IMG/VR virus record: IMGVR_UViG_2541047891_000003
DNA length: 40,697 nt
Direction: 5' to 3' (one strand)
DNA from: a virus
Lineage: Duplodnaviria > Heunggongvirae > Uroviricota > Caudoviricetes
Shown: piece by piece, positions 5,072 to 16,361 of the stretch
How positions within the stretch are numbered: position 1 is the first letter of the stretch
How the letters are laid out: every line of letters begins with the position of its first letter
Notes under the pieces: model-generated
Told to the model about the DNA's origin: nothing
The model's input: the letters and a program-made list of their open reading frames with translations, nothing else
The model's database searches: none
Position numbers and translations under genes: made by a program

Positions 5072-5129
5072 AAAAAGGGCGGCAGAGCAGTCACGGAGTA
5101 AAACTGATACCGCCAAACGTCACCAGAAA
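5072..5129 (-). ncRNA. dicF: DicF small regulatory RNA (ftsZ-targeting sRNA)
   Basis: Minus-strand sequence TTTCTGGTGACGTTTGGCGGTATCAGTTTTACTCCGTGACTGCTCTGCCGCCCTTTTT matches the DicF sequence I recall; ends in a GC stem plus T-run; about 170 nt upstream of dicB as in Qin. Confidence 0.85.
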
Positions 5130-8010: not shown

Positions 8011-9081
8011 ATGGCTAACGCCTGGCTCAGATTATGGCATGACATGCCAAATGACCCTAAGTGGCGAACAATTGCCAGGGTGTCAGGGCAGCCAATTGCA
8101 ACAGTGATGGCAGTGTATATCCACCTCCTGGTGAGCGCGTCACGAAATGTCACGCGAGGTCACATTGATGTCACGACAGAAGATTTGGCAAGTGCGCTCG
8201 ACGTGACAGAAGAGGTAATTGATTCAATTTTGCAGACGATGCAGGGGCGGGTACTTGATGGTGATTTAATCACTGGATGGGAAAAACGCCAGGTGCTGAA
8301 AGAGGACAACGGCAATATTTCGCAAACCGCAAAATCTCCTGCAGAGCGCAAGAGGGCGCAGCGAGAGAGGGAAAGAAAGCGGGAACAAAATGGAGATTGT
8401 CACGGCGCGTCACGAAATGTCACGCACATGTCACGACGAGTCACGACAGATAAAGATACAGATAAAGATACAGATCAAGAAGATCAAAACACTATGGTCC
8501 ATGGCGTAAAAAACGCCACGAACCAGGCAGGGGATGTTCAGACCGTCAATCCTGGTCAGCCAGCAGGCACGACACCGGAAGCCGATTCAGCGTATGCGCT
8601 GAAAGCCGATTCGGGCGCTGTGCAGCAGGTGATGACCGCAAGGCCGGAGCAATCACACCAACTGCAGCAGCCTGAAGCCGATTCCGCCATTCAGCGGGAA
8701 GCCGATCGGGTAGTCCCGGAAAACACCGGGCAGCCTGTGGGACGAGTGGATTATCCGGATGTGTTCGAACAGGTCTGGCGGGAATACCCGTTGCGTGCCG
8801 GGGCAAACCCGAAGAAATCCGCTTTCAGTGCCTGGAAGGCCAGATTACGCGAGGGGGTGTCACCAGAGGCCATGCTGGATGGCGTGAGGCGTTACGCAAG
8901 ATACCTTGCGGCTACCGGGAAAACGGGAACGGAATTTGTTCAGCGAGCGACGACGTTTTTTGGACCGGACCGGAATTTTGAAAACCCCTGGCTGCTCCCG
9001 GTAAGCGGCACGAACAACCAGCGTTGTGTGAATCATATTTCTGAACCGGATACCGAAATTCCGCTGGGCTTCAGGGGGTAA
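8011..9081 (+). CDS. Replication initiator / replisome organiser (O-like, YdaU-type N-terminal domain)
   Basis: ATG at 8011 with RBS AGAGGTGA upstream; N-terminal replisome-organiser-like region; iteron repeats embedded in the coding sequence. Confidence 0.65.
   Translation: MANAWLRLWHDMPNDPKWRTIARVSGQPIATVMAVYIHLLVSASRNVTRGHIDVTTEDLASALDVTEEVIDSILQTMQGRVLDGDLITGWEKRQVLKEDNGNISQTAKSPAERKRAQRERERKREQNGDCHGASRNVTHMSRRVTTDKDTDKDTDQEDQNTMVHGVKNATNQAGDVQTVNPGQPAGTTPEADSAYALKADSGAVQQVMTARPEQSHQLQQPEADSAIQREADRVVPENTGQPVGRVDYPDVFEQVWREYPLRAGANPKKSAFSAWKARLREGVSPEAMLDGVRRYARYLAATGKTGTEFVQRATTFFGPDRNFENPWLLPVSGTNNQRCVNHISEPDTEIPLGFRG
8137..8480. repeat. Iteron array (GTCACG-containing direct repeats) plus GATAAAGATACA tandem repeat; candidate replication origin inside the initiator gene
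   Basis: 19-mer GCGTCACGAAATGTCACGC at 8137-8155 and 8407-8425; TCACGACAGA at 8171-8180 and 8441-8450; GATAAAGATACA x2 at 8450-8473. Confidence 0.6.
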
Positions 9082-9121
9082 GTGTTTATTTCAGCTCATG
9101 AGGTAATTTTCAGGAGGACTT

Positions 9122-9529
9122 GTGGCAAAAGTTTTTACACAAGAAGAGCGGGAAAAAATTAAAGGGCAGGTTGTTGAACTTGTACGCCAGAGTGGGCGCG
9201 AGACGTTACGACAACTGGAAGCTAAAACCGGGGCAACAAGATATCTGATGAGTGTTCTCGCCAGAGAGCTGGTTGCCAGTGGCGATGTATACAATTCTGG
9301 CTACGGGTTATTCCCGTCTGAACAGGCTCGTAAGGACTGGCAAAACGCCCGCAAAAAACTCTCAAGGGCAAAGCTGAAGAAAAAAACACCTGTGGTTGAT
9401 CCGGACCTTATCTGGTCGTTACCAGACGGAGAAATACGTCGTTATGACAGGCGTCAGAACATAATCTGTAGCGAGTGCCGGGAAAGCGAAGTTATGCAGC
9501 GTATACTAACGTTCTATTGGGGAATATAG
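9122..9529 (+). CDS. Hypothetical protein (possible winged-helix DNA-binding protein)
   Basis: 135-aa ORF with GTG start and GGAGG 4 nt upstream; no family recognised. Confidence 0.5.
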   Translation: MAKVFTQEEREKIKGQVVELVRQSGRETLRQLEAKTGATRYLMSVLARELVASGDVYNSGYGLFPSEQARKDWQNARKKLSRAKLKKKTPVVDPDLIWSLPDGEIRRYDRRQNIICSECRESEVMQRILTFYWGI

Positions 9530-9544
9530 CCACTAAATAAGGTA

Positions 9545-9856
9545 ATGAACCAAATGAACACGGAAAAAGCGAAAACGCAGCTCAGGATAATGCTTGCCGG
9601 TCCGGCTGCGAGTTATGCGACACATTCACCAGCCATAAAAAAGGTTCTTGATGAACTGGAGGCCAAAGACAAGCGCATTGCAGAACTGGAGGCAAGGGAA
9701 GTCCAGCTACCGGCTGGCTATGAACTTCGATATGGACACCCGATAAATGCTGATGAGCGCCATGTCATGATACCTAAGGAAAATGGCAGCTGGATTTATC
9801 TGGCTGATTTAGAGCGCGCACTACGTGTTGCTGGCATTCGCATCAAAGGAGAGTGA
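9545..9856 (+). CDS. Hypothetical protein
   Basis: 103-aa ORF; the start may instead be the ATG at 9554. Confidence 0.5.
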   Translation: MNQMNTEKAKTQLRIMLAGPAASYATHSPAIKKVLDELEAKDKRIAELEAREVQLPAGYELRYGHPINADERHVMIPKENGSWIYLADLERALRVAGIRIKGE

Positions 9857-9857
9857 C

Positions 9858-10214
9858 GTGGAAATAAAACCAGAAGATGAGTTAAGTAATATTGTTTTAT
9901 TTCCGGTAAAAGAAGATGACCCACGTAATCAGGTTAATTTTCTTTATGAGCCATCGGAAAGACCATATTGCCATCACGCTTCTGTCCGGGTTGATGAAAA
10001 AGAGCGTCAGGTCCGCTGTAAAATCTGCGGTGCAGTTGTGGAGCCGTTTGACTGGATGCTCTCTGTGGCGAAAAGAGAAACCAGACTGGCAGATGATGTA
10101 AGGCTATTGCGTCAGGAGGAACGGGAAAGGCGGAAAAATATAGAAAAGCTAATTCAGATTGAGCGTAACGCAAAAGCGCGGATACGCAGAGCGACAAAAT
10201 CCAGAACTGAATAA
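9858..10214 (+). CDS. Hypothetical zinc-ribbon protein
   Basis: GTG at 9858 preceded by AAGGAGAG; CHH...CKIC motif; basic C-terminus. Confidence 0.5.
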   Translation: MEIKPEDELSNIVLFPVKEDDPRNQVNFLYEPSERPYCHHASVRVDEKERQVRCKICGAVVEPFDWMLSVAKRETRLADDVRLLRQEERERRKNIEKLIQIERNAKARIRRATKSRTE

Positions 10215-10307
10215 TTAAATTTAGCACGGTTAAAAATTTAATCCTTTACCGGAGGGATTTCTGCACCCTCAGAACAGCAGGAGACCACCCGAAAGGGCGG
10301 TAGTGAA

Positions 10308-10490
10308 ATGCGAAAGTTCAAAGTAATTATTGAAACTGGAATAGCTGGTGGAGATTTTGAGGATGTATTCGAAGTGGACGATGACGCAACACCTGATGAA
10401 ATTCATGACGAAGCAAAAGAAATTTTCTTTAACTACTGCAATTACTCATATCACGAAATAAAAGACGAAGAGGAAGAACAAAATGGCTGA
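10308..10490 (+). CDS. Hypothetical acidic small protein
   Basis: 60-aa ORF, 8-nt overlap with the next small ORF. Confidence 0.45.
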   Translation: MRKFKVIIETGIAGGDFEDVFEVDDDATPDEIHDEAKEIFFNYCNYSYHEIKDEEEEQNG

Positions 10491-10659
10491 TTTTGGTTCA
10501 ACTAAATATAACGCCAGTTTTGAAGAATGGCATGAACTGTTAATGGACTATGCAGAGTTACGCGGTGGAAGTGCCGCCGATGCTGAAGCATGGCGTGATG
10601 ACTATGAAGCAGGAAAAACTCCGGTCGAAGCATATTGTGATGAGTGGGGCTATGAATGA
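10483..10659 (+). CDS. Hypothetical 58-aa protein (not in the ORF track)
   Basis: Hand-translated MADFGSTKYNASFEEWHELLMDYAELRGGSAADAEAWRDDYEAGKTPVEAYCDEWGYE; ATGA overlap with the downstream gene at 10656. Confidence 0.5.
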   Translation: MADFGSTKYNASFEEWHELLMDYAELRGGSAADAEAWRDDYEAGKTPVEAYCDEWGYE

Positions 10660-11171
10660 GCGAGATTAATTATCAGGAAGGGCATGAAACGGCAGGGCAG
10701 GCAAAACCAGTTGCATGGCGATATCGCTACGTGAAAAAAGGCGTTACGGACTTTCAGGAGAAGATGTGGGTTGGTGACTGGAAATATGTACCGACAAAAG
10801 AGGATTGCAACGACAGGCCGAGCTATGAGATTCAGGCATTATTCACTACCCCGCCAGTCCCGGTGATATCAGAAGGACTGGTTAAAGCCGTGCGCTTTTA
10901 TGAACAGGTAAAGCGTGAGAATCCACCAGTCGAAACAGGAGCATGGAAAGATGCTGTTGATTGGGTACTCAAAGAGGCCTGCTGTGCTGTCATTCTGGGT
11001 AAAGCCGACAATCCACTAGCATCCAGTAATCAGGTTGGCGAATTAACAATGTGGGTTAAACGACTGGTCAGTCAACTGAAAAAAGCTAATCCAGACTGCA
11101 AATTACCGGAGATGGCGATGGATTACCTGAAACGAAATGGACTGATAAGCGTGGAGGATGTTTTACGATGA
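10656..11171 (+). CDS. Hypothetical protein
   Basis: 171-aa ORF, translationally coupled to its neighbours. Confidence 0.6.
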   Translation: MSEINYQEGHETAGQAKPVAWRYRYVKKGVTDFQEKMWVGDWKYVPTKEDCNDRPSYEIQALFTTPPVPVISEGLVKAVRFYEQVKRENPPVETGAWKDAVDWVLKEACCAVILGKADNPLASSNQVGELTMWVKRLVSQLKKANPDCKLPEMAMDYLKRNGLISVEDVLR

Positions 11172-11251
11172 CCTGGCCTGAAGCATTCACAACGGTAGGA
11201 ATCGCACTGGCGGTGGCGCTGGTGGTGTATTCGATTTGCCGCTGGGGGTGA
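11168..11251 (+). CDS. Hypothetical 27-aa hydrophobic peptide (not in the ORF track)
   Basis: ATGA overlap with the upstream stop; MTWPEAFTTVGIALAVALVVYSICRWG is a single TM helix. Confidence 0.35.
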   Translation: MTWPEAFTTVGIALAVALVVYSICRWG

Positions 11252-11294
11252 TAAGTGGAATAGTGCGGGGTATCGTGCAGCCCCGCTGATTTGA

Positions 11295-11468
11295 TTATTT
11301 ATTTGGGGAGACAATGTCCTGAAGCGTGACGATTACTTCTTCATCTGTATCTGTATTTCGGAGTTGATATGTAATGTCGTCGTTTCTAATAATTTGCACT
11401 ACAAGCCATTCTCCATTTTTTTCACATAAGTGAACAGTACTGTTTTCCGATATACCATGAACGGTCAT
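11295..11468 (-). CDS. Hypothetical 57-aa protein (not in the ORF track)
   Basis: Hand-translated MTVHGISENSTVHLCEKNGEWLVVQIIRNDDITYQLRNTDTDEEVIVTLQDIVSPNK; AAGG about 9 nt upstream; AT-rich. Confidence 0.4.
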   Translation of the reverse strand: MTVHGISENSTVHLCEKNGEWLVVQIIRNDDITYQLRNTDTDEEVIVTLQDIVSPNK

Positions 11469-11679
11469 TTTTATACCTTTTGTGTTGTGTGAAGGAGCAG
11501 TATAGTCAGAAATGAGACAAGTGAAAGGGGATAGAAAGTAATAGTTTGTTTTTGTAGAATTGCTGCGGGTGCTTGAGGCTATCTGCCTCGGGCATGAACA
11601 CCAACGGCAGATAGAGAAAAGCCCCAGTTAACATTACGCGTCCGGCAAGACGCTTAACATTAATCTGAGGCATATCTGT

Positions 11680-11880
11680 ATGCGACACATAAAGATTAGC
11701 CTCTTAACAGTAAGAAATCAACTAACAGGGGGCTGTAATGCGAAGGAGCTATGTGTTTTGTCTGGTGGTGGTTTGCATCACCATTCTGATATTTGTCGGG
11801 ATGGTTCGCGGTTCGCTATGCGAGCTGCACATCAGGCAGGGAAACACAGAGCTTTCAGCGTATTTAGCCTACGAAGTTGA
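11680..11880 (+). CDS. mok: mok-like overlapping reading frame of a hok-family locus
   Basis: 66-codon ORF starting upstream of, and overlapping in another frame, the hok-like toxin ORF, as in hok/mok/sok loci. Confidence 0.4.
   Translation: MRHIKISLLTVRNQLTGGCNAKELCVLSGGGLHHHSDICRDGSRFAMRAAHQAGKHRAFSVFSLRS
11693..11721 (-). promoter_or_regulatory. sok: Candidate promoter for a Sok-like antisense RNA (minus strand: -35 TTGATT, 17-bp spacer, -10 TAATCT)
   Basis: Promoter-like hexamers on the minus strand positioned so the transcript would be complementary to the mok start region. Confidence 0.35.
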
Positions 11881-11890
11881 AAAACGTTAA
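11738..11890 (+). CDS. hok: Hok/Gef-family type I toxin (50 aa)
   Basis: Hand-translated MRRSYVFCLVVVCITILIFVGMVRGSLCELHIRQGNTELSAYLAYEVEKR; matches the Hok/Gef pattern (TM helix, SLCE motif, conserved C-terminal AYxAYE); GGGGG RBS upstream; not in the ORF track. Confidence 0.85.
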   Translation: MRRSYVFCLVVVCITILIFVGMVRGSLCELHIRQGNTELSAYLAYEVEKR

Positions 11891-11961
11891 GAGCTACGGC
11901 GGGGAGCAATTCCCGCCACTCTTTAAGTTGTCAGGTATCCTCAATGCACCCGCACTTAACC

Positions 11962-12012
11962 CGCTTTAGCGCTGATTTATGGGGATCCCTCAGCGCTTCG
12001 GCGGGTTTTTTG
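11962..12012 (+). terminator. Strong Rho-independent terminator (nested hairpin CCGC..GCGCTGA...TCAGCGC..GCGG then TTTTTT)
   Basis: Long imperfect hairpin followed by T-run 12007-12012; about 70 nt after the hok stop, consistent with a hok mRNA 3' end. Confidence 0.7.
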
Positions 12013-12093
12013 TTGTTTATTTTCGGTGAGCATGATGCATCTGGTTGTACTGATGTGGCTGGCTGATTCTGTTATTCAGGTGGCTTATTGCTG

Positions 12094-12121
12094 TTGATTG
12101 GTATGTCTTCACGGCTAGAAT
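12094..12121 (+). promoter_or_regulatory. Sigma70-like promoter candidate (TTGATT, 16-bp spacer, TAGAAT)
   Basis: Good hexamers with 16-bp spacing; followed by the perfect 12-bp palindrome CCCCTTAAGGGG at 12160-12171. Confidence 0.45.
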
Positions 12122-12201
12122 CGAGGATCTTAAGTAGCGCGCAGGGAGAAGAGGGATGGACCCCTTAAGGGGAGGTGTTTAAAGTTCACGGGATTTTGGT
12201 T

Positions 12202-12369
12202 ATGAACGATAAGGAATTAATTGCTGCGCTCTCTGTACCTGGTAATTATGAAGTAATAGTTCTTGAGAATGGTGAATTTATCGTAATGCCATTGCCACCC
12301 GATGTTATTCTGATCACCAAAGAATCGCATGCGGATTCGGTCAGTCACTTCAGCATTAAGAAAGACTAG
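12202..12369 (+). CDS. Hypothetical small protein
   Basis: ORF MNDKELIAALSVPGNYEVIVLENGEFIVMPLPPDVILITKESHADSVSHFSIKKD; start uncertain (GTG at 12175 sits immediately after the RBS). Confidence 0.4.
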   Translation: MNDKELIAALSVPGNYEVIVLENGEFIVMPLPPDVILITKESHADSVSHFSIKKD

Positions 12370-12435
12370 ATTATAATGCCGTAGTTAAAGCCAGCCTGAA
12401 CAACTGGCGTCTGTCGCACCATTACGAGGATAGTA

Positions 12436-12714
12436 GTGGTGCATTACAAGAAAATTAACAATTCTGATAATACAGCCGTCTTTGCCAGCAGGCACGGGCG
12501 GCGTTCTCATGCATTTAAATCTGACTGGTTCCAGCATGACCCATGCACTGAAGAACAGGCCGAATGGCTGATTCAGAACTATCGCAGACGTGGGTGTGAG
12601 TTTAGGAAAGCCCTCAGCCTCGATTATCGTCACTGGATAATCTACGTCAGGCTCCCTTATTCCGAACGCCCACCACGCCCGTCCCGCACATTCCAGCAAC
12701 GGATCTGGAGGTAA
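12436..12714 (+). CDS. Hypothetical protein
   Basis: 92-aa ORF with GTG start and GAGG 6 nt upstream; directly precedes the ydfU-like gene. Confidence 0.5.
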   Translation: MVHYKKINNSDNTAVFASRHGRRSHAFKSDWFQHDPCTEEQAEWLIQNYRRRGCEFRKALSLDYRHWIIYVRLPYSERPPRPSRTFQQRIWR

Positions 12715-12715
12715 C

Positions 12716-13765
12716 GTGCGGGTATTACTTCGACCTGTTCCGATACCGGAACTCGGGCTGGTGGTCCTTAAACCAGGCCGTGAATCCATGCAGGTATTTC
12801 ATAACTCTCGAGTGCTGGTGGAGCCGGAACCGAAAAGCATGCGCGGCCTGCCATCCGGGGTCGTCCCTGCCGTTCGCCAGCCGCTGGCTGAGGATAAATC
12901 ATTACTGCCATTTTTCAGCGATGAGCGGGTGATTCGTGCTGCTGGCGGCGCTGGCGCATTGTTTGACTGGTTACTGCGCCATGTTAAATCCTGCCAGTGG
13001 CCACACGGCGATTATCATCACAGCGAAACCGTCATTCACCGTTATGGTACCGGCGCGATGGTGTTGTGCTGGCACTGCGACAACCAGTTGCGTGACCAGA
13101 CATCCGAATCACTCGGGCAACTTGCTCATCAAAACCTGTCAGCATGGATGATTGACGTCATACGCCATGCAATGAATGGCACACAGGAGCGGGAATTATC
13201 GCTGGCTGAATTATCCTGGTGGGCAGTCTGCAATCAGGTGGCGGACGCGCTACCGGAGACAGTATTACGTCGTTCTCTGAGGTTACGTGCGGAAAAAATC
13301 CGCTCGGTGTACCGCGAAAGCGACATCATGCCGGGAGAGCAGACAGCCACCAGCATACTGAAGCAGCGCACAAAAAATATTGTGCTATCGCCTCACGCCC
13401 ACCAGCAACAGAACTCACCGCAGGAAAAGGCGGTGGTCAGCATTGCTGTTGATCCTGAGTCTCCGGAATCTTTCATGAAGCGACCTAAACGTCGCCGTTG
13501 GGTAAATGAGAAATATACGCGCTGGGTAAAGACACAGCCGTGTGCGTGTTGTGGTAAGCCAGCCGACGATCCCCATCACCTGATTGGTCACGGTCAGGGA
13601 GGGATGGGAACAAAGGCCCACGATATTTTCACGCTACCGTTGTGCCGGGAACATCACAATGAACTTCATGCGGATCCGCTGGCGTTCGAAGAAAAGCATG
13701 GTTCCCAGGTTGATTTAATTTTTCGTTTTCTTGATCACGCCTTTGCAACCGGCGTGCTCGGGTAA
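12716..13765 (+). CDS. ydfU: YdfU-like protein (DUF968, Cys/His-rich C-terminus)
   Basis: 349-aa ORF; C-terminus CACCGKPADDPHHLIGHGQGGMGTKAHD...CREHHNELH; same length as Qin YdfU. Confidence 0.7.
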   Translation: MRVLLRPVPIPELGLVVLKPGRESMQVFHNSRVLVEPEPKSMRGLPSGVVPAVRQPLAEDKSLLPFFSDERVIRAAGGAGALFDWLLRHVKSCQWPHGDYHHSETVIHRYGTGAMVLCWHCDNQLRDQTSESLGQLAHQNLSAWMIDVIRHAMNGTQERELSLAELSWWAVCNQVADALPETVLRRSLRLRAEKIRSVYRESDIMPGEQTATSILKQRTKNIVLSPHAHQQQNSPQEKAVVSIAVDPESPESFMKRPKRRRWVNEKYTRWVKTQPCACCGKPADDPHHLIGHGQGGMGTKAHDIFTLPLCREHHNELHADPLAFEEKHGSQVDLIFRFLDHAFATGVLG

Positions 13766-16051: not shown

Positions 16052-16127
16052 GGCCCTTTAGCTCAGTGGTGAGAGCGAGCGACTCATAATCGCCAGGTCG
16101 CTGGTTCAAATCCAGCAAGGGCCACCA
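16052..16127 (+). tRNA. ileZ: tRNA-Ile2 (anticodon CAU, lysidine type; could alternatively be tRNA-Met)
   Basis: Cloverleaf with acceptor GGCCCTT/AAGGGCC, anticodon loop CTCATAA, T-loop TTCAAAT, CCA end; close to E. coli ileX as I recall it. Confidence 0.8.
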
Positions 16128-16128
16128 A

Positions 16129-16205
16129 CCGCCACTAGCTCATCAGGAAAGAGCGTCAACCCTTTAAGTTGAGAGTGCGAGGTTCGAGTCCCCGGTGGCG
16201 GTCCA
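16129..16205 (+). tRNA. tRNA with atypical anticodon loop CCTTTAA (anticodon UUU = Lys if canonical; C at position 33)
   Basis: Acceptor CCGCCAC/GTGGCGG, D-arm GCTC..GAGC, anticodon stem TCAAC/GTTGA, T-loop TTCGAGT, CCA end; identity uncertain. Confidence 0.6.
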
Positions 16206-16207
16206 GT

Positions 16208-16283
<76 letters not shown>

Positions 16284-16286
16284 TAT

Positions 16287-16361
<75 letters not shown>

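Follow-up and report, generated by a model that had tools for sequence, protein, structure and literature searches.

Three short open reading frames in the accessory region of a lambdoid Escherichia coli prophage, including a very likely gene for a widespread membrane microprotein

Whether the very short open reading frames (ORFs) that lie among the early genes of a prophage are genes at all is the question raised by a stretch of 40,697 nucleotides recorded in IMG/VR as IMGVR_UViG_2541047891_000003 (hereafter the window, meaning the whole stretch that was analysed). Family and RNA scans, together with a comparison with annotated loci, identify the window as a lambdoid prophage of Escherichia coli. 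A first-pass annotation, made from the letters of the sequence, had proposed that a 60-amino-acid (aa) cutoff had missed three small genes in a nin-like region: one for an acidic protein of 58 aa, one for a single-transmembrane peptide of 27 aa and one, on the opposite strand, for a protein of 57 aa. All three ORFs are present where they had been placed (Table 1), each begins with ATG and the translations match. Chance yields many ORFs of such length, with 88 of 20 codons or more in the 5-kb stretch 8500-13500, and the three by themselves are no more than chance expectation; the verdict therefore depends on comparison with other genomes. That comparison makes it probable, as explained below, that the accessory region of this lambdoid prophage holds three separate small protein-coding genes. 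The frames of all three are kept in every homologous locus examined, and the loss of frame that the first-pass annotation had named as its refutation was observed in none of them. When the three proteins and their neighbours were scanned against Pfam, PHROGs, NCBIfam and PADLOC, the 58-aa protein alone among the three matched a family (in PHROGs); Pfam and NCBIfam gave no significant match for any of the three.

Comparison across loci makes the 27-aa ORF very likely to be a real gene for a single-pass membrane microprotein that belongs to none of the described families. Its boundaries are sharp: homology with other loci starts precisely at its ATG, and directly past its stop the loci diverge into many unrelated contexts, several different intrinsic terminators in some and the start of another gene in others. 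The stop of the preceding 171-aa gene and the ATG share an ATGA at 11168-11171, which was one of the overlaps described in the first-pass annotation. In other phages a DUF551 gene stands in place of the 171-aa gene, and at least five unrelated upstream coding sequences (DUF551, PHROG 660 and others) end in a TGA that overlaps the 27-aa ATG. Across about 40 upstream contexts a GGAGG-like motif, in a few of them a one-base variant, lies 7-10 nt before this ATG. As a separate observation, proteins that otherwise differ from one another (PHROGs 660, 924, 8171 and 30109; 10656-11171 in the window and 2269-2631 in locus L159) end in the same ~25 residues (...DCKLPEMAMDYLKRNGLISVEDVLR) as the product of the gene that precedes the 27-aa ORF, and this shared ending and the 27-aa ORF seem to move together as one mosaic block.

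Copies of the ORF were gathered with a degenerate DNA pattern, which presupposes the peptide, and a 43-aa in-frame extension. The scan with the pattern recovered 143 copies, made up of 57 variants at the DNA level and 32 at the peptide level, and 141 of the 143 have exactly 27 codons. The stop at codon 28 alternates between TAA and TGA; in codon 2 the first base is invariant A, because the ATGA overlap requires it, and the second base takes all four values. Substitutions, counted on a minimum spanning tree and only in the 12 codons left free by the search pattern, amount to 58 synonymous versus 61 non-synonymous events where 31% synonymous would be expected (p=2.5e-5), corresponding to a ratio of non-synonymous to synonymous rates (omega, or dN/dS) of about 0.47. 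The amino acid replacements are nearly all among A/V/I/L/M/T, and the full set stays within A/V/I/L/M/T/F/G. Moreover, the ORF is kept in all loci that were found by nucleotide BLAST or by way of the neighbouring 57-aa gene, in one of them with a two-residue C-terminal extension. This last case is the 29-residue form (ending in RWGDK) at 1713-1856 on the minus strand of L158, where there is a 1-nt change at the stop; the 933W locus (L144, 1501-1578) has a 26-residue form typical of 933W-type Shiga toxin (Stx) phages, in which the final Gly is absent and which lies between gene p77 and sokW/hokW. The extreme C-terminus thus tolerates change.

Several points weigh against this picture. Most copies of the 27-aa ORF came from a pattern that presupposes the peptide, which makes conservation at the pattern positions circular, and what counts is therefore limited to the free codons, the position of the stop and the loci that were retrieved independently. 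In the free codons, variable sites are about equally frequent at the three codon positions (16/15/19). The antisense frames are likewise open over these 84 nt in most variants, so that six-frame openness, which we considered as a coding test, is uninformative here. And for this ORF, as for the other two, the support consists of sequence comparison.

Could the segment at 11168-11251, some 80 bp, be kept as DNA or RNA rather than as a coding sequence, for example as a Chi recombination hotspot that generates mosaic junctions, or as the 3' end of the early transcript beside the terminator? The octamer GCTGGTGG within the ORF is found in 98 of 141 copies, the segment sits at a mosaic junction, often with a terminator directly after it, and its 3' half is better conserved in nucleotides than its 5' half. 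Chi sites are also dense and strongly skewed across the window as a whole, with 13 on the plus strand versus 4 on the minus strand in 40.7 kb. We nevertheless regard such an explanation as highly improbable. Variants that lack Chi (MNWPEAF...AFILYSLFRWG, MSWPEAF...ALGLYSICRWW and the 933W type) retain the ORF, its length and its hydrophobic core, and in other copies the site has been broken by synonymous changes that leave A-L-V-V in place, which means that the conservation is not that of Chi. Behind unrelated upstream genes it is the start, the stop, the ATGA overlap and the Shine-Dalgarno sequence that persist, the free codons have the synonymous excess given above, and in some contexts another gene rather than a terminator directly follows. 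On the RNA side, RNAalifold found no conserved structure over the segment among 16 diverse variants (-6.4 kcal/mol, with one compensatory pair), and Rfam gave no match at E<=1 over 11168-11251, the neighbouring sok being the only RNA found; on these two results a structured RNA or small RNA (sRNA) was rejected. The prophage-encoded Pas sRNAs (bioRxiv 10.64898/2026.05.13.724894) lie beside RusA, holin and lysozyme genes and are therefore irrelevant to this segment.

As a protein, the peptide has the single-transmembrane character that the first-pass annotation gave it. The mean Kyte-Doolittle hydropathy of residues 7-24 is 2.23, and it ranges from 1.36 to 2.54 in all 30 peptide variants, a conserved hydrophobic stretch long enough to span the bilayer, as in the generic class of small single-pass proteins. 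Judged from this anatomy, the product is predicted to be a single-pass inner-membrane microprotein in which aromatic residues would mark the two interfaces (W3/F7 and Y21/W26), G11xxxA15 and A13xxxA17 would form a small-xxx-small face, and a single arginine lies at the C-terminal end, which is presumably cytoplasmic. The ATGA overlap and the GGAGG point to translation by termination-reinitiation coupling to whichever gene precedes. As the putative last cistron before the intrinsic terminator, the gene would be expressed only after prophage induction or infection, and the peptide may act in the membrane by pairing its helix with that of a membrane protein of the host or the phage, or by self-association.

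A different action of a real 27-aa peptide would be membrane damage, as by the type I toxins Hok, TisB, DinQ and ShoB, with depolarisation or permeabilisation of the inner membrane early in lytic growth. Its size, its single hydrophobic helix and its charged C-terminal end resemble what is generally known of such toxins, and the gene adjoins hok/sok both in the window and in Stx phages. We consider this unlikely all the same. The peptide matches neither Pfam HOK_GEF (PF01848), nor the NCBIfam Hok models, nor any other toxin model, which removes membership of Hok/Gef from consideration; its weak matches to glycine-zipper and KdpF profiles reflect only the composition of a membrane helix. Control in the style of Hok/Gef, by a cis-encoded antisense RNA and a structured leader, was likewise rejected, with no match to an antisense RNA family and no conserved structure over the ORF; instead of being tightly silenced, the ORF is coupled through its ATGA to an ordinary upstream gene. 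It also occurs in many contexts without hok, for example before xis/int, KilA-N, ORF6N or DUF4222 genes, and its conserved end motifs (WPEAF and YS[IL][CF]RW) suggest specific contacts. Because of the missing type I control elements, the many hok-less contexts and these end motifs, we favour specific helix-helix binding over toxin-like damage.

The 27-aa ORF is as common as it is rarely annotated. Among 5426 complete E. coli genomes, at least 1609 were matched by a blastn query with 11168-11560, some of them at as many as 7 places, and nearly all matches span only the first ~80 bases, that is, the 27-aa ORF, at 79-99% identity. Relatives are confined to Escherichia or Shigella, with rare cases in Salmonella. 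In the Qin and Rac prophages of K-12 no homologue of any of the three ORFs was found, and the idea of a named K-12 orthologue of the peptide was dropped. The ORF is unannotated in the 11 RefSeq/GenBank records inspected, which include 933W, Stx2 II, VT1-Sakai, Min27 and ArgO145, and in a collection of 15 billion proteins, calls of the common variant are limited to 79 contigs, under the names "bacteriophage protein" or "hypothetical protein". Where the frame is called as a partial coding sequence at contig ends, the Prokaryotic Genome Annotation Pipeline (PGAP) names it "DUF551 domain-containing protein, partial" (P0148, P0152, P0157, P0210, P0211, P0216 and P0225-P0227), and these calls draw the peptide into a 90% cluster with true DUF551 proteins of 121 aa. 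Identity or fusion with DUF551 (PF04448) was rejected, as the peptide has no match to the Pfam model and the 121-aa DUF551 proteins do not contain it; the label is carried over from the upstream gene. The peptide motif was not found in any of the papers searched, nor was the peptide in the supplementary data of Hücker et al. 2017 (PMC5597208) or in those of 'The Cryptic Bacterial Microproteome' (PMC11188072), and the paper on hokW-sokW (PMC8621323) does not mention the upstream ORF.

The 58-aa ORF requires less argument, as on sequence grounds it is certainly a genuine gene and one that is already catalogued. Its protein matches PHROG 519, a family to which no function has been assigned, over residues 1-58 (E=1.3e-22, 81.7 bits), and PGAP annotates it as a hypothetical protein (WP_000753054.1) in both E. 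coli chromosomes inspected (L001 and L002). The gene was thus missed by the first-pass annotation only because of that reader's own 60-aa cutoff. Its 90%-identity cluster has 181 members, and 69 homologous clusters, mostly of proteins 58 aa long, come from E. coli, Enterobacter (cloacae complex) and Salmonella, with 66-93% identity across the three genera and ten invariant residues. A tblastn search matched 198 phage records (Salmonella, Klebsiella, Escherichia, Enterobacter and other phages), among them virulent Ackermannviridae of Salmonella, Klebsiella and Escherichia at 51-61% identity, so the family is common to temperate and virulent enterobacterial phages. The ATGA overlap ascribed to this ORF exists at its 3' end, where its stop and the ATG of the 171-aa gene share 10656-10659; at its 5' end there is instead an 8-nt overlap with the preceding DUF7167 gene (ATGGCTGA, 10483-10490). 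The protein is indeed acidic (isoelectric point (pI) 4.08, 15 acidic versus 4 basic residues, net charge about -11), and its AlphaFold2 (AF2) model is a three-helix bundle with a mean predicted local distance difference test (pLDDT) score of 71. The gene, probably linked in translation to its neighbours, would thus be expressed from the rightward early transcript and yield a three-helix protein that is soluble and very acidic.

The first-pass annotation added that small proteins of this region are often anti-defence or host-takeover factors, and the 58-aa protein, perhaps with the other two, could be imagined as such a factor, for example an acidic DNA mimic or an inhibitor. A very low pI with a strongly negative charge, a small helical bundle and a position in the early operon would suit that role, and a family present in temperate and virulent phages alike fits a host-directed function rather than one tied to a single phage life style. 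We find the proposal doubtful: nothing ties the 58-aa protein to any defence system, and it has no match in Pfam, NCBIfam or PADLOC, the last of which holds models of defence and not of anti-defence. PADLOC likewise gave no match for the 27-aa peptide and, for the 57-aa protein, only a non-significant one to Cas8b (E=0.018, 12.3 bits). Fold searches were uninformative on function.

The 57-aa ORF is of another kind. It exists as proposed; a place in the early operon does not follow, since it lies on a separate insertion beside hok/sok and in the opposite orientation. We think it quite probable that it is a real gene, best described as a moron-like orphan. The ~300-bp cassette that carries it is present or absent as a unit between conserved neighbours: in L002, L019 and 933W-type loci it is missing, and the 27-aa ORF and the hok locus lie ~32 bp apart. 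The whole blastn query that includes it was held by only 10 of the 5426 complete genomes. In almost all loci that have the ORF it lies between the 27-aa ORF and hok/sok, opposite in orientation to both; L158 has kept it without hok, and L159-L162 have a 95-aa gene between it and the 27-aa ORF, so that it acts as a unit in its own right. All 12 distinct variants, with identities as low as 68%, keep the frame open, and the two most distant of these have in-frame indels in the ORF body (+6/-3 in L158 and -3 in L159). Against distant variants dN/dS is 0.25-0.43 (Fisher p 0.0008-0.04). A -10-like hexamer, TATACT, is kept upstream even in the 68%-identity variant with its diverged flanks, and a purine-rich ribosome-binding site is conserved amid diverging sequence. 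We infer a young, Escherichia-restricted gene with its own putative promoter and ribosome-binding site, which would be expressed from the prophage in the manner of a moron, independently of the early operon, and whose product may be a small beta-barrel.

It is conceivable that the 57-aa ORF is no gene and that the cassette, which precedes hok, is a spacer without coding function or a regulatory stretch (a terminator, promoter context for hok, possibly read-through of Sok) in which the frame happens to be open in a few close copies. A good deal of the evidence weighs on that side. Close variants give dN/dS of 0.8-1.9, that is, near 1; for the distant ones p rises to 0.03-0.18 once the codons of the search pattern are removed, and in some pairs off-frame controls are equally low. 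PGAP makes no call in the complete genome L001, and the protein has no family match in any of the four libraries. The ORF is found in Escherichia only: seven clusters at 90% identity, all from E. coli, and three at 50% among 1.84 billion representatives in an exhaustive HMMER search. The promoter amounts to a conserved hexamer with a poor -35, which a consensus promoter scan did not report, and the hairpin that follows the ORF has no U tail on the minus strand. This hairpin folds at -17.2 kcal/mol on the plus strand and -11.8 on the minus strand, with stems that are invariant and loops that are variable among variants. The AF2 model, with a pLDDT of 67, is of moderate confidence. Yet non-coding DNA would not readily explain three in-frame indels within the ORF body of the two most distant variants, nor a frame open in all 12 variants at up to ~30% nucleotide divergence, nor an omega of 0.25-0.43 with p down to 0.0008. 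The hexamer and the ribosome-binding site are, moreover, conserved at a fixed distance from the ATG, and the ORF is kept where hok is missing and where an extra gene stands on its other side. We thus judge the non-coding explanation to be the less probable of the two, though a serious one, and retain that of a moron-like gene.

With regard to relatives of the 57-aa protein, the modelled small beta-barrel is a generic fold: identity to Tudor/SH3-like small beta-barrels is 2-20%, and the resemblance carries no functional inference. Every HMMER match of the family beyond the three clusters is to polyubiquitin, with E down to 1e-23 in the PDB and the 1.84-billion library. Homology to ubiquitin was rejected as an artefact of summed repeats because each match spans a ubiquitin-ubiquitin junction and has 10.8-12.4 bits, with an independent E of about 1-3.

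The positions of the features discussed so far are collected in Table 1.

Table 1. Features in and around the three short ORFs (positions in the window)
Feature	Position	Strand	Description and basis
58-aa acidic three-helix protein gene, PHROG 519	10483..10659	+	ORF listing, profile match, PGAP, homologues
171-aa gene (PHROG 660)	10656..11171	+	precedes and is coupled to the 27-aa ORF; ORF listing, profile match
GGAGG Shine-Dalgarno of the 27-aa ORF	11153..11157	+	within the end of the upstream gene
27-aa single-pass membrane microprotein gene (very likely), MTWPEAFTTVGIALAVALVVYSICRWG	11168..11251	+	final cistron in this part of the rightward early operon
Chi site	11218..11225	+	in codons 17-20 of the 27-aa ORF; motif scan
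Insertion cassette, ~300 bp	11252..11553	.	terminator, 57-aa ORF and the ORF's upstream region; presence/absence comparison
Intrinsic terminator hairpin	11265..11286	+	GCGGGG...CCCCGC, U-rich tail on +; terminator scan, folding
57-aa lineage-restricted ORF, probable small beta-barrel protein	11295..11468	-	opposite to the early operon, divergent from hok
-10-like hexamer TATACT	11499..11504	-	~30 nt upstream of the 57-aa ATG; invariant in 8/8 aligned variants
hok/sok type I toxin-antitoxin locus	11567..11890	+	leader and sok region, mok-like ORF 11680-11880, Hok toxin 11738-11890

From left to right the window carries the integrase side, the DicF RNA, a repressor/cro pair, a YdaT-like gene, the replisome organiser and a DUF977 gene, followed by a run of small overlapping rightward genes and then by hok/sok, DUF968, RusA and the antiterminator Q; downstream of Q are four tRNAs, the lysis genes and the virion genes. 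The three short ORFs thus lie between the replication genes and DUF968/RusA/Q, and "nin-like" was a fair label for this position. The neighbouring toxin-antitoxin locus is well supported (Rfam sok, 98.2 bits; Pfam HOK_GEF, 65.4 bits for the ORF at 11738-11890) and is itself a mosaic: its leader and sok part, up to 11706, is ~96% identical to a hokD-type locus (L001), and its toxin ORF encodes a different, HokA-like Hok, which passes Pfam HOK_GEF and scores 62.9 bits in NCBIfam versus a cut-off of 89. Between hok and DUF968 lie two further plus-strand genes with no assigned function, one of 64 aa at 12175-12369 (PHROG 34610, E=1e-42) and one of 92 aa at 12436-12714 (PHROG 1212, E=5e-37). As in the Qin prophage, the gene for the DicF antisense RNA belongs to the leftward early region, at 5077-5128 on the minus strand (Rfam, 76.7 bits); the four tRNA genes (Met-CAT, Lys-TTT, Thr-TGT and Gly-TCC) are at 16052-16361 on the plus strand, between Q and the lysis genes.

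Taken as a whole, the content described here is that of an ordinary phage accessory region, and it leaves the understanding of lambdoid phages unchanged. The 58-aa and 57-aa genes add little, the former belonging to a catalogued family without a function and the latter being a rare orphan. The one modestly useful outcome concerns the microprotein gene, which is conserved and widespread and has next to no annotation in E. coli and Stx prophages: it has 26-27 codons, occurs in roughly one in three complete E. coli genomes, often in several copies, is carried by the reference Stx phages 933W, VT1-Sakai and VT2-Sakai, and is absent from RefSeq annotation, Pfam, PHROGs and NCBIfam. It offers a clean, testable candidate for small-protein studies in the prophages of enterohaemorrhagic E. 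coli. More far-reaching roles can be imagined, namely that the 27-aa peptide is a dedicated phage effector which binds one host inner-membrane protein (in division, transport or signalling) and switches it off or re-programmes it early after induction, and separately that the 57-aa beta-barrel protein modulates the adjacent hok/sok at the protein level. We hold these to be long shots. If either were true, phages as well studied as 933W and Sp5 would gain a new component, and the effector would be one carried by Stx-converting and many other E. coli prophages.

How do the three compare with known systems? The 58-aa protein aligns with PHROG 519 over its own full length, residues 1-58 corresponding to profile positions 76-137 of 143, and its relatives hold a similar early or accessory position in enterobacterial phages; it differs in covering only the C-terminal ~60 of the 143 positions, so that some members of the family must be longer. 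The 57-aa ORF invites comparison with the morons of lambdoid phages, which are independently transcribed insertions such as lambda bor, lom and HK97 gp15. Like them, it sits on a discrete insertion of ~300 bp that is present or absent between the same neighbours, and it runs against the surrounding operon with its own -10-like element and ribosome-binding site and a hairpin after it. It differs in that its promoter is only a conserved hexamer, its hairpin is without a U tail on the minus strand and its product has no known relatives, and the likeness drawn here is one of anatomy. The 27-aa peptide, finally, can be set beside the small single-pass inner-membrane proteins of enterobacteria and their phages (KdpF, AcrZ, MgtS, PmrR and the SidA-type division inhibitors) and the type I toxins Hok, TisB, DinQ and ShoB. 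It differs from these in having no sequence similarity to them (its best scores, E=0.056 for KdpF and E=0.045 for the DUF883 glycine zipper, do not reach the cut-offs), and in being phage-borne, coupled to an upstream gene and without an antisense RNA. On the other hand, it shares with them the scale of 25-50 residues, the one hydrophobic helix with its interfacial aromatics and small-xxx-small spacing, and the basic residue at one end; and, like most of them, it is routinely overlooked by annotation.

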